Source: Squalus acanthias (Eukaryota). From it: a stretch of DNA of 64,000 nucleotides. A program made the translations under genes and the position numbers. The stretch is from assembly GCA_030390025.1 (NCBI GenBank), contig CM059431.1, forward strand, positions 97,838,001-97,902,000. The letters run 5' to 3'. Under the pieces are notes generated by a model. The model was given only the letters and a program-made list of their open reading frames with translations. It did not search any database and had not been told where the DNA came from. This document shows, one piece after another, positions 48,116-49,489 of this stretch (position 1 is its first letter; each line of letters begins with the position of its first letter).

Positions 48116-49489
48116 TGATGCGACAGGGGTTACTAGTTTCAGGGGACATGCTGCATTCCACCAAAGGATTAAGAGGAGCTAAGGAACCGATATACTCACA
48201 GGAATAAACACGGCCCTTGATATACAAGGAGTCCAGAGTCGTGTGGAACGACTACAAGGGGTAATATAACAGATTTTAGAGAAGGAAACTGGTTTGGTTC
48301 GACAAGGATCAGAGTTGGGGGGACATACGATAAAGAAATTACTCGAGGGAATCAAGGTTATAGAGGACCATGCTAGCATTATCAACAAACTAAACCATAG
48401 AGATGAGGAACAGGCAAAAGACGGTGTAGGGCGAGGCTTGTGTCATGCCTATGGCCAATGGATCACCGGACAGTTAAAACACAATCTGGCACAGATACAG
48501 CAAGGTGAGGTACCAGACTGGATCTGAGCCAGAATCCAGGCCCTCTGAGTGCTTGCACCCTCAAAGGGATGACCAGAGTATATCCGGTGATACAAAAATG
48601 TAAAGCAGAAGTGACAGTAATGATAGGCATGGTACTCCTGATACCGGTGGTGGGACTAGACACGACTCCATACCCACAGTACCAGGTAACAAACATAGGC
48701 ATAGTGAGGGGTGAGACATACCTCCAATACTATCCAATTGATACCTATGCCATCAGGAAGAATGGTACTATGAGAGGAGTCTCCCTAAACGGATGCCACG
48801 GGAAAGGCACGCTTACGATATGCCCACATCCGGTAGGAGAAGACCCTAAGGATGAGTGCGGCTATAATAAGACAGAGGGGTGTGTGTTGGAATTATCACA
48901 TGTTGACCACCATCACACCCGCTCGGGATATAGAGGCGAAGGGGAGTATTGTTTCGCCACCACAGAGACTGAGTACCAATATAGTAACCTTGTATGTGCA
49001 ATCACAATGCCTAACTTCTGCTTTACGCCAAAGATCCCTGTGACAATTGGACACACCAGATTGGTGTATGTACATTCAAGGGAGGAGATAAAACTAAATG
49101 TGCCAGATAGTCTAAAGGACGAGTTGGTCAATTATGAAGATCCGGTAGGGGCCCCAATACCCCGCCTGCAAGAGGATCTGCAAGAAATGAAAGAGGATTT
49201 AAGTAAGATGGTGAAACAATACATAGTGTTGCAATGGAATCTTGGGGAATTAGAAAGGGACATAGAGGTAGAGCTACAGGAAGTCCCGTGATATGAGAAG
49301 CTGTGGGATTGGGGAATGAATGTCAACATACACCCATGGATCCGCATCATTTCTCATATGTTAGTGATAGTACAGTTAGTCATGGCTATAGGATGGGGAA
49401 TAGCAGCATGCACTGCTTGTAAAAAGAAACGGAACAAACAAAGAGCTAAAGCGAGTCGGAAAGAGCTGGAAAACACAAGGTTGCTCTAA
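48116..49489 (+). pseudogene. env: Retroviral env pseudogene (end of SU plus TM)
   Basis: Furin site RIKR at 48165-48176, heptad-like segments, Cys-rich ectodomain, hydrophobic TM helix ~49346-49411, basic tail. Stops at 48180, 48267, 48525 and 49289, and a frameshift near 48530. Confidence 0.85.

Follow-up and report, generated by a model that had tools for sequence, protein, structure and literature searches.

A fossil endogenous retrovirus of the shark Squalus acanthias with a probable F-like (class Ib) fusion glycoprotein of possibly spuma-like lineage

Introduction

F-like (class Ib) fusion proteins of retroviruses have so far been described in foamy viruses, from structures published in 2024, and in lokiretroviruses, from weak sequence similarity; the published E-value of the lokiretrovirus Env against PF00523 is 2.2e-7 (PMC7947760). 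According to the accessible part of the same study, lokiretroviruses are unreported from cartilaginous fishes. The walleye viruses are the orthoretroviruses known to have an Env that is not gamma-type.

In the accessible part of the published pol trees, the foamy-like endogenous retrovirus (FLERV) of Xenopus tropicalis is nested inside the shark FLERVs, and the corresponding part of the FLERV study states that in either host no gene besides pol could be found. The catshark element ERV-Spuma.0-Sca is 9220 bp long and has an env annotated at 6989-8314, and a catshark 'Spuma' ERV has been described with a third ORF without a recognisable Env domain. Here we describe an env remnant from the spiny dogfish, Squalus acanthias, and the family of envelope proteins to which it belongs.

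Results

The insertion

The window analysed is a stretch of 64,000 nucleotides of the S. acanthias assembly GCA_030390025.1 (contig CM059431.1, positions 97,838,001 to 97,902,000, forward strand), and all positions below are counted from its first letter. Positions 47771-50203 hold what is left of a provirus after an internal deletion. Its features and those adjoining it are:

47766..47770, no strand: 5' copy of the target-site duplication, CCTAT; the identical 5-mer adjoins both LTR ends
47771..48115, + strand: truncated 5' LTR, starting TG; 345 of ~595 bp kept, with a gap-free alignment to 49609-49953
48116, + strand: internal deletion junction (48115/48116), where LTR similarity ends and env similarity begins
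48117..48176, + strand: last 20 SU codons, ending RIKR; aligns to the stretch before RSKR in a 714-aa Mustelus protein
48177..48524, + strand: TM part 1 (frame A) with the fusion-peptide position, predicted HRA helix and GEVPDWI; the relative's equivalent is modelled as helical (H252-366)
48525..48556, + strand: frameshift zone, 32 nt versus ~18 codons in relatives; TGA 48525-27 closes frame A
48557..49168, + strand: predicted beta-rich core of TM (frame B) with GMVLLIP, YQVTNIG and a conserved cysteine ladder; pLDDT 70-95 over most strands
49169..49336, + strand: predicted HRB helix (~49169-49276) and Trp-rich membrane-proximal stretch (49292-49336); helix H221-256 in the window-fragment model
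49337..49489, + strand: predicted membrane-spanning helix (49337-49420), basic cytoplasmic tail (49421-49486) and natural stop TAA (49487-89)
49597..49608, + strand: polypurine tract AAAAGGGGGGAT, directly 5' of the 3' LTR
49609..50203, + strand: complete 3' LTR of 595 bp, ending CA; TATAAA at 49875 and 50060, AATAAA at 49937 and 50136
50204..50208, no strand: 3' copy of the target-site duplication, CCTAT; the identical 5-mer adjoins both LTR ends

The paired TG..CA LTRs, the polypurine tract and the short duplication identify the locus as an LTR retroelement insertion, and together with the strong homology to an env family they bear out the original prediction of an ERV env remnant. The window contains the LTR seed two times, compared to 0 occurrences expected by chance. 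The two LTRs have 18 mismatches in 345 positions (94.8 % identical, K2P 0.054), corresponding to an age of ~27-54 Myr at rates of 1.0-0.5e-9 substitutions per site per year. The duplication is 5 bp long; as TG follows both CCTAT copies, a length of 7 bp is also possible. The distal TATAAA/AATAAA pair of the 3' LTR is absent from the truncated 5' LTR, and the rest of that LTR, the primer-binding site, gag, pol and ~225 env codons are missing at the junction. The distance from the env stop to the polypurine tract is only ~107 bp, which leaves no room for an accessory gene. A retroviral pol of the element was found in none of the 26 long ORFs scanned in the window, and a tRNA scan around the element found none.

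The long ORFs elsewhere in the window come down to fragments of LINE-type RVT_1, a GIY-YIG element, an exon of the Ras family and artefacts of repeats.

Reading frames and damage

Frame A (48117-48527) contains ...FHQ-RIKR (48165-48176), a polar Gly/Thr-rich stretch, a long helical region and GEVPDWI. Frame B (48509-49489) contains GMVLLIP, YQVTNIG, LNGC-x8-C, ECG-x6-C and GEGEYCF; these are followed by another helical region, by a stretch rich in Trp (LWDWG..IHPW) and by a hydrophobic helix with a basic tail behind it. Kyte-Doolittle values of the frame B translation peak in windows that begin at residues 280-285, at the membrane-spanning helix. The env-derived sequence begins at 48117, straight after the LTR break, so that 20 SU codons stand upstream of RIKR, which is the sole RX[KR]R match in the window translations (regex scan). 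The TM fusion subunit is complete at ~436 codons, close to the ~430 first estimated, and is in frame ~6 codons shorter after the cleavage site than the Mustelus protein.

The window env is dead. It has three internal in-frame stops (TAA 48180-82, TAA 48267-69, TGA 49289-91) and one frameshifting deletion, with the frame lost at TGA 48525-27; the natural env stop is at 49487-89. An earlier count of four stops and one frameshift agrees with this when the TGA at 48525-27 is included among the stops. This damage is private to the window copy: at the three stop positions nearly all overlapping contigs of sequencing runs X4, X13 and X14 have another letter, and other copies in run X14 contigs have extra letters at 48523/48524 that are missing here. 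Five run X13 contigs of other copies also have a different sequence upstream of 48116. The summed contig depth over env was 10^3 to 5x10^4, compared to 15-30 on the unique flank. The flank-LTR joint is spanned by a run X1 contig (47600-47883), and a run X4 contig enters the LTR by 25 letters only. Runs X13 and X14 have contigs ~93 % similar to the 5' flank which diverge exactly at 47771 and extend only ~30 letters beyond.

Relatives of the env

The frame B translation (P0002) matched the 714-aa protein of Mustelus asterias (E 1.1e-92, 47 % identity) and, in a search of 1.84 billion proteins, 28 representatives at E <= 0.001. The Mustelus protein is an intact env copy of the kind thought worth looking for at the outset, and open reading frames persist in several sharks. 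The shark hosts belong to at least six genera, Mustelus, Chiloscyllium (2 species), Heterodontus, Heptranchias, Pristiophorus and Scyliorhinus; other hosts are the coelacanth Latimeria and the frogs Xenopus tropicalis and Pelodytes. The env family is unannotated in these sharks, the coelacanth and the frogs. The closest relatives of the window env are all from sharks, in accordance with the shark host suspected from the letters, and in the env tree the frog sequences are nested inside a shark/coelacanth clade with support of 99/98.

A cleavage site (RIKR, RSKR or RRKR) is present and aligned across the family. The 25 residues following it are only weakly hydrophobic: the mean Kyte-Doolittle value is -0.14 for the window copy, and relatives range from 0.35 to 0.88. 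Pfam scans used cut-offs of E <= 10 for the window translations and full-length relatives and E <= 0.01 for the 28 representatives. No viral family was matched at E <= 10 by either of the two window translations or any of the three full-length relatives, and Foamy_virus_ENV was matched neither by these nor by the representatives. None of the 33 family proteins scanned matched PF00523 (F0) or a TLV_coat-type family, and one of the 33 had a sub-threshold match to Baculo_F (PF12259; E 0.0011, 18.1 bits versus a cut-off of 24.1). Run against the sequences of the PDB, the solved foamy Env among them, the family profile gave 9 matches, all of them coiled-coil noise. In regex scans CX6CC was absent from the window translations P0001 and P0002, the Mustelus protein P0003, the relative P0022 and the frog protein P0034, and LQN[RK] was absent from the TM subunits of all five; the sole LQN[RK] match, at residue 98 of P0003, falls within SU, since the furin site of that protein comes later, at 249. 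By these motifs the window env is not gamma-type, as had been argued from the missing CX6CC and immunosuppressive domain. Judged by the searches, the env family has no Pfam model and is separate from the gamma-type, the published lokiretrovirus and the Pfam foamy Env families.

Some family members, not all, have further N-terminal features. In frog P0034 an N-terminal anchor is followed by a second furin-type site, REKR, at residue 62, and in the Mustelus proteins WTTW adjoins the signal sequence. A Chiloscyllium gene model (P0041) has an integrase-tail-like GD..V..W.GP segment, a motif read by eye, fused directly to a family env; a search with this N-terminus returned only P0041 itself. Searches for a linked pol gave pattern matches, with none confirmed, in metagenomes (queries P0006 and P0002), and none was found in IMG/VR (queries P0006, P0002, P0034 and P0022). 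None of four family motifs was present in the supplements on the catshark element ERV-Spuma.0-Sca, where sequences are given as nucleotides.

Predicted fold

Two AlphaFold models were compared with known structures. The AF2 model of the 714-aa Mustelus protein had a mean pLDDT of 56.8, with core stretches at 70-92, and the model of the window fragment, with X at the stops, a pLDDT of 68.1. Model confidence was middling (pTM 0.39 and 0.42) and TM-scores were low, 0.2-0.5. When the Mustelus model was searched against the PDB with Foldseek, 238 matches were obtained at E <= 0.001, of which the best 38 were all paramyxo- or pneumovirus F proteins, hPIV3 F being the best (4.8e-10). With VIA against 48,161 chains, ranks 1-9 were all F proteins (Z 9.1-11.1), and six of these nine, rank 1 included, aligned over 269-279 residues with an rmsd of 5.4-6.5. 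Foamy Env followed (8rm1_D, Z 7.8; 8rm0_A, Z 7.6, 268 residues, 14 % identity), and unrelated coiled coils started at Z 5.7. The aligned range, 174-568 of the Mustelus protein, crosses the furin site at 249-252, so that both subunits would form the core.

The window-fragment model gave 25 Foldseek matches at E <= 0.001, and among the best 18 of these foamy Env took rank 2 (E 1.9e-4), all the others being F proteins. With VIA, 49 of the 50 matches listed for the fragment were single-helix matches and none had Z >= 8; its residues 50-195 aligned with foamy Env 8rm1_D at Z 6.1 over 129 residues. 

Among the predicted viral structures of BFVD the best matches were chu-, arli- and lispivirus-like glycoproteins (E 1.2e-13 to 1e-10). 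This search also returned baculovirus F (2.4e-10), the Envs of the walleye viruses WEHV-1 (9.4e-11, rank 7) and WDSV (8.1e-9, rank 18), and feline foamy Env (2.4e-5, rank 41). The ESM Atlas neighbours belonged to the Baculo_F, Fusion_gly or Gypsy families with scores of 0.91-0.93, which we treat as a lead only.

The env core is thus predicted, at moderate model confidence, to be of the domain I/II/III class Ib type with HRA, HRB and a C-terminal anchor, and the beta-rich core at 48557..49168 would correspond to domains I/II of F-type fusion proteins. In the Mustelus model ~15 residues separate an HRC-like helix (213-234) from RSKR at 249, and an extra Cys-rich N-terminal region of ~135 aa, poorly modelled, precedes the core. 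The combination of AlphaFold and Foldseek proposed with the original prediction placed F proteins best and foamy Env next in the PDB, and the suspected link to paramyxo- and pneumovirus F proteins and foamy Env appears, from the models, to be a shared fold type. In BFVD the walleye Envs outscored feline foamy Env, which touches on a condition named with the original prediction, that best matches to gamma- or epsilon-type Env would count against it.

Discussion

We consider the locus to be, quite probably, a fossil of a high-copy shark ERV family which encoded an F-like (class Ib) class I fusion glycoprotein and whose lineage may be spuma-like. A member of this family would have integrated once in the germ line, and an internal deletion would afterwards have taken out everything between the mid-part of the 5' LTR and env codon ~225. 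What remained of env would then have gained three stops and a frameshifting deletion, leaving no protein function. By analogy with solved F and foamy Env structures, furin would cut the precursor of this F-like class I glycoprotein at RIKR. The C-terminal subunit would start with a fusion-peptide segment and the long helix HRA, continue through a beta core rich in disulfides (domains I/II) to HRB, and finish with a membrane-proximal segment rich in Trp, the membrane anchor and the basic tail. The short C-terminal piece of SU would also take part in this core, with strands and one helix. During fusion HRA may extend as a trimeric coiled coil and HRB pack back onto it.

The lineage reading draws on host distribution and tree shape, the window copy having no pol, gag or primer-binding site. 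The original prediction cautioned that the element could not be classified without pol, and this still applies, as none is in the window copy and none was found linked elsewhere. Its suggestion of a spuma-related or loki-like lineage has fared unevenly: the family stands apart from the lokiretrovirus Env as published, and a spuma relationship is the most plausible, on circumstantial grounds. The nesting of frogs among sharks in the env tree parallels the published FLERV pol clade and leans towards a spuma-like origin. The second furin-type site after the N-terminal anchor of frog P0034 resembles a foamy leader peptide and leans the same way, as does the third ORF, of no recognisable Env domain, in a catshark 'Spuma' ERV. 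The element is a poor fit to exogenous foamy viruses, from which it differs by its duplication of 5 bp, its LTR of 595 bp and its lack of accessory genes after env. The weakly hydrophobic segment behind the cleavage site does not suit foamy viruses either. Our tentative first choice for the env family is the spuma-like shark-frog ERV clade (CmiFLERV/XtrFLERV), in which env has gone undetected. It is possible, if somewhat doubtful, that the family is the missing env of these basal foamy-like retroviruses, a compact F-like protein with an extra N-terminal domain and no receptor-binding domain (RBD) before the furin site.

Other origins have to be weighed against a spuma-like one. That the env came from a class I retrovirus of the epsilon-like kind, with an Env like that of the walleye viruses, seems unlikely to us, although both walleye Envs stood above feline foamy Env in BFVD. 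Foldseek E-values cannot separate families within the F-like superfamily, walleye Envs are 1159-1317 aa long compared to ~714 here, and the 28 sequence matches include no long retroviral Env. Walleye viruses also have accessory genes downstream of env, for which there is no space here. In the available portions of the literature, a review describes the walleye virus Env as without gamma-type hallmarks, and epsilon-like ERVs with a downstream env in a chimaera genome cluster with walleye and amphibian viruses. In the accessible part of one survey, however, all 17 of 17 non-spuma amphibian retroviruses, epsilon-like ones included, were assigned a gamma-type Env, which would leave the frog members of the family unexplained. 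An Env of a divergent, so far unreported lokiretrovirus of cartilaginous fishes is, in our estimate, rather improbable. The lokiretrovirus Env is the one retroviral Env already linked to Pfam F0, its layout includes a signal peptide, an RXKR site, a fusion peptide, a coiled coil and TM, by eye its short motifs come in a similar order to those of the family (G-R-I-P-x-Y-L/G-E-V-P-D-W-I, LNLPI/LLIPV, a C..CP...CG ladder), and lokiretroviruses are present in coelacanth and frogs. Against it, PF00523 was matched by none of the 33 family proteins, the Loki fusion peptide is strongly hydrophobic and the family's is not, and the accessible parts of PMC7947760 contain none of six family motifs in the supplement and no lokiretrovirus in three Orectolobiformes genomes. 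The Loki-Xtr and Loki-Lch Envs are, by eye, visibly unlike the family members of X. tropicalis and Latimeria, so that two Env types would coexist in those hosts.

A non-retroviral source would be either an errantivirus-like element of the Ty3/Gypsy type whose env is of baculovirus F type, or the capture of a glycoprotein from a chu-, arli- or paramyxo-like negative-strand RNA virus. Such a source would account for the leading BFVD matches and the baculovirus F value of 2.4e-10, for the ESM Atlas neighbours at 0.91-0.93 (a lead only) and for the one sub-threshold Baculo_F match. We nevertheless hold it to be very improbable: the gene occupies the place of env, with the pol-side deletion before it and the polypurine tract and LTR after it, an integrase-tail-like segment (by eye) is fused to env in the Chiloscyllium gene model, and a systematic screen, in its accessible part, found no intact vertebrate homologues of invertebrate errantiviruses. 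Capture of the glycoprotein in the deep past may have taken place and would be compatible with our main reading. The intact family ORFs in M. asterias could finally suggest a domesticated (syncytin-like) host gene or a functional env at the window locus, a proposal whose probability we put at practically nil and which the reading frame rules out. The window copy is without signal peptide and most of SU, has the three internal stops and the frameshift, and is missing the 3' part of its 5' LTR, and its defects are absent from other copies.

The window locus is an ordinary dead insertion, and its value lies in the env family. A third Env family, invisible to sequence searches yet present in sharks, coelacanth and frogs alike, would mean that the F-like fusion machine is commoner in ancient vertebrate retroviruses than domain searches suggest, and that 'no env detected' in surveys of basal ERVs can reflect a failure of detection. 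If a pol of the family joins the foamy-like ERVs, it would help to order the events between F and foamy Env, such as gain or loss of the receptor-binding insert. If the family is indeed the missing env, it would show the form of foamy Env before insertion of the RBD and provide a direct bridge, in sequence and structure, from retroviral Env to the F proteins of negative-strand RNA viruses. Work on endogenous foamy viruses of cartilaginous fishes published in J Virol in 2023 may already describe this env family.

Comparison with known systems

Baculovirus F and errantivirus Env (Baculo_F, Gypsy) are predicted to belong to the same fold superfamily (BFVD E 2.4e-10 to 1.5e-7). They come from insect viruses and Ty3/Gypsy elements, and vertebrate homologues are unreported in the accessible part of one screen. 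The walleye epsilonretrovirus Envs (WEHV-1, Q9WHI8; WDSV, A4GTG3) are, as Envs of fish orthoretroviruses, not gamma-type either and match the family in predicted structure, the walleye structures being predicted only; they are about twice as long and have no sequence match to it. The lokiretrovirus Env (Wang and Han 2020, PMC7947760) is likewise F-like, is found in lower vertebrates, has RXKR and shares the motif order by eye. In X. tropicalis and Latimeria, which are hosts of both, it appears, again by eye, to be another protein family, and the family studied here has no PF00523 similarity and no motifs shared with the accessible part of the supplement.

The paramyxo- and pneumovirus F proteins (hMPV 7sem, RSV 8wsq, hPIV3 1ztm, NDV 3maw) are the best structural matches of the env family. 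Both appear to be furin-cleaved precursors in which a short N-terminal subunit joins the core, with the order HRA, beta domains, HRB and TM anchor. The family differs in having no detectable sequence similarity to F (PF00523 is unmatched), in being encoded between LTRs in vertebrate genomes and not by an RNA virus, in its extra Cys-rich N-terminal region of ~135 aa before the core and in a much less hydrophobic fusion-peptide segment.

Compared to foamy Env (simian FV, 8rm0/8rm1), the family has no Pfam or PDB sequence match, is shorter (~714 aa versus 981 aa in feline foamy virus) and is without the C-terminal dilysine signal typical of foamy Env. The target-site duplication is 5 bp here and 4 bp in foamy viruses. 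In foamy Env the RBD (217-543) lies between HRC and the furin site, and the family model has no inserted domain there. The foamy leader peptide has an N-terminal membrane anchor and W-x-x-W and is cut from SU by furin; some family members may resemble it in a second furin-type site after the anchor (frog P0034) or in W-x-x-W near the N-terminus (Mustelus). The predicted class Ib core is shared, and the Mustelus model and foamy Env align at Z 7.6-7.8, with 268-312 residues and 12-14 % identity.

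Structure of the provirus remnant

The subject is a dead endogenous retrovirus (ERV) remnant, recognised by its LTR pair, polypurine tract and flanking duplication, which retains the TM subunit of an env. Its features are as follows.

47771-50203 (+): LTR element (provirus remnant)
47766-70 and 50204-08: duplication CCTAT on either side of the element, read from the sequence
47771-48115 (+): 5' LTR, TG start, 345 bp, matching the 3' LTR free of gaps, with no match beyond 48115
48117-48524 (+): env frame A, 20 SU codons to RIKR, then a polar segment rich in Gly and Thr, an extended helical region and GEVPDWI
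48557-49486 (+): env frame B, a cysteine-laddered core rich in beta strands, then another helix, a Trp-rich stretch, a helix of hydrophobic residues and a basic tail
immediately 5' of the 3' LTR (+): polypurine tract AAAAGGGGGGAT, read from the sequence
49609-50203 (+): complete 3' LTR, 595 bp, CA end, found by self-comparison of the window

A 22-base LTR seed had two exact occurrences in the window, compared to 0 expected by chance. Duplications of 5 bp are usual for class III ERVs. Env-like coding sequence begins at 48116, directly where the LTR stops; gag, pol, the primer-binding site, the remainder of the 5' LTR and some 225 codons from the start of env have therefore been lost in an internal deletion. 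The two LTRs differ at 18 of the 345 aligned positions (K2P 0.054), which dates the insertion roughly, and with wide error, to ~54 Myr at the shark substitution rate of 0.5e-9 adopted in one published study, or to ~27 Myr at double that rate.

The original prediction was of an env remnant of foamy-virus/F-protein type, not gamma-type, and its description, coordinates and defect count for the env agreed with our reading of frames A and B. When the env was translated with X in place of stops, in-frame stops were found at 48180 (TAA), 48267 (TAA) and 49289 (TGA). The frame is lost between 48525 and 48556, where 32 nt stand against about 18 codons in relatives. The window copy is incapable of making a working fusion protein. 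A regex scan of the window env translations gave 0 matches to CX6CC and LQN[RK].

Logan contigs from four sequencing runs were placed on 47600-50400 at a likeness of at least 90 %, giving 496 to 16,603 contig pieces per run. In the three DNA-type runs the summed depth over the env was 10^3 to 5x10^4, compared to 15-30 on the unique 5' flank; summed contig depth does not equal copy number, as the tool warns, and by this depth env-bearing copies are many. Where the window copy has its three stops, almost every other copy reads another letter, and other copies have extra letters at 48523/4; the defects, missing from other copies, therefore arose in the window copy after insertion. In five contigs of one run other sequence continues upstream of 48115. 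Several coded organisms contained 29-57 % of the words in the stretch.

Surroundings of the insertion

46301-46870 (+): small GTPase terminal coding exon (Pfam Ras, E 8.6e-17)
31644-32278: 21-bp array
32803-34614, 36245-37761 and 39392-40181: 33-bp minisatellite in three arrays of 24-55 copies each, with 92-93 % matches
22203-23087 (-), 58217-59347 (-), 62560-63645 (-), 5620-6498 (+) and 42135-43577 (+): fragments of reverse transcriptase from non-LTR retrotransposons (Pfam, RVT_1 E 5e-22 to 8e-4) and an ORF with a weak GIY-YIG match

The GTPase exon, which may belong to a RAB20-like gene, is on the strand of the ERV and its stop codon precedes the element by 900 bp; the 3' UTR of this gene may thus contain the ERV or end shortly before it. 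In run X1, possibly RNA, one contig bridges 47600-47883. Immediately 3' of the insertion, from 50232-50400 onward, is a very abundant repeat with a summed depth of about 10^6 in three runs and many loose ends. This repeat is probably a SINE, though ARAGORN found no tRNA gene in it, and between it and the target-site duplication lie only about 24 bp of sequence with lower copy number. The minisatellite arrays are spaced about 3.1-3.4 kb apart. The tandem arrays account for long ORFs that stay open in either direction, and for spurious Mucin-like, Colipase-like and hexapeptide Pfam matches. The RVT_1 and GIY-YIG fragments, the latter possibly Penelope-like, are not related to the ERV.

Relatives of the env

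The window translations had 0 Pfam matches at E <= 10, and a PDB sequence search with them returned a coiled-coil chance match and nothing else. The protein search found an 'uncharacterized protein' of 714 aa, intact, in Mustelus asterias, 47 % identical to the window env (E 1.1e-92). At 90 % identity it belongs to a cluster of 7, three of them named and carrying separate Mustelus gene names, and two more such names occurred among further matches. The env family has 28 representatives at E <= 0.001. Its named hosts are sharks (Mustelus, two Chiloscyllium species, Heterodontus, Heptranchias, Pristiophorus, Scyliorhinus), the coelacanth, Xenopus tropicalis and Pelodytes ibericus. None of 33 env-family proteins matched a viral Env family above the Pfam threshold; one gene model had a sub-threshold Baculo_F match.

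A maximum-likelihood tree was built from 22 rows, each covering at least 180 residues of the window fragment (a 327-residue translation); in it the window copy formed its own lineage, grouped with Mustelus, Chiloscyllium and Heterodontus sequences (94/93). The frog sequences fell inside a clade with one Chiloscyllium and one coelacanth protein (99/98).

Three host gene models contain pieces of the env family. The F-box protein Heterodontus francisci fbxo15 isoform X3 (P0026) has the env HRB-TM-tail as its C-terminal end, Pristiophorus japonicus cadherin-related 5-like (P0035) has an env fragment at the start of a cadherin-like protein, and Chiloscyllium punctatum P0041 has an integrase-tail-like segment fused to env; these could be pieces of ERV that have become exons, or chimeras made in annotation. 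The N-terminal region differs in the frog/Chiloscyllium branch, where P0022 (C. punctatum) has the UniRef name 'Ig-like domain-containing' and P0034 (P. ibericus) carries an anchor at its N-terminus and, after it, another furin-type site (REKR, residue 62). In P0023 (2352 aa), one of the representatives and probably a translated tandem repeat, 39 separate stretches aligned to window-fragment residues 46-109, with odd repeated Pfam matches; it was excluded from every alignment.

Predicted fold and fusion mechanism

The structure models, of moderate confidence, make a predicted F-type env well supported. The Mustelus protein model, built with a 33-row alignment, had a mean pLDDT of 56.8, rising to 70-92 in residues 160-200 and through most of 360-560. 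A Foldseek search of PDB gave 238 matches at E <= 0.001, the best 38 all being paramyxo-/pneumovirus F. In VIA-align against 48,161 representative chains, nine F proteins headed the list (Z 9.1-11.1), six of them, rank 1 included, with 269-279 residues aligned at rmsd 5.4-6.5; foamy Env came next (Z 7.8 post-fusion, 7.6 pre-fusion), and unrelated helices followed from Z 5.7. The matched range, 174-568, crosses the furin site at 249-252, the hallmark of class Ib as named by Fernandez et al. The window fragment model (mean pLDDT 68.1) gave 25 Foldseek matches at E <= 0.001, those listed being F proteins, with foamy Env at rank 2. In its wide search foamy Env was the sole non-helical match in the best 50 (Z 6.1, 129 residues, 16 % identity). 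Among predicted viral structures (BFVD), the Mustelus model matched chu-, arli- and lispivirus-like glycoproteins, baculovirus F, paramyxovirus F and two walleye epsilonretrovirus Envs (9.4e-11 and 8.1e-9), with feline foamy Env lower (2.4e-5). ESM Atlas neighbours with Baculo_F, Fusion_gly or Gypsy families serve as a lead only. The scores from these searches do not separate the F-type families by nearness.

The furin-type site is conserved throughout the family, the modelled beta core, which has a long helix on each side, can be overlaid on domains of F and foamy Env, and a membrane anchor lies at the C-terminal end. By analogy with solved homologous folds, the protein would form a trimeric pre-fusion spike, in which, after the trigger, HRA would extend, the N-terminal segment of the TM subunit would insert into the target membrane and HRB would fold back to give a six-helix bundle. 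The weakly hydrophobic segment after the furin cut is a candidate fusion peptide.

Retroviral lineage

A spuma-like lineage is our tentative reading of the env, and a lineage other than those weighed here, known or not, takes the probability that they leave. In the RT/Pol trees of Aiewsakun and Katzourakis, the X. tropicalis foamy-like ERV (FLERV) nests within shark FLERVs, and pol is there the sole gene detectable in either host. The shark-frog pairing in our env tree is the published FLERV pairing, which circumstantially favours a spuma-like origin. A catshark 'Spuma' ERV of 9.2 kb, described in a later paper as having three ORFs and no recognisable Gag or Env domain, is a further circumstantial point. 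Endogenous foamy viruses of cartilaginous fishes are the subject of a 2023 J Virol paper, which may already describe the env.

An epsilon-like origin is unlikely: the walleye Envs among the BFVD matches speak for it, but their size speaks against it, as does one published survey, in which all non-spuma amphibian retroviruses are reported to have gamma-type Env. Kinship with lokiretroviruses is more doubtful still. Short motifs follow a similar order by eye, but the published consensus Envs have a strongly hydrophobic fusion peptide (PMC7947760), and in the available part of the supplement the single chondrichthyan row has 0 of 3 Orectolobiformes genomes positive. Published loki Envs are also visibly unlike the family's proteins from X. 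tropicalis and Latimeria, and 0 of 6 env-family motifs occur in that part of the supplement; by these comparisons, made by eye and by motif, identity with a published loki Env is ruled out.

The spuma-like reading has to be set against foamy Env itself, which has no sequence-level match to the env family and has a domain nested before the furin site, whereas the modelled env lacks such a domain.
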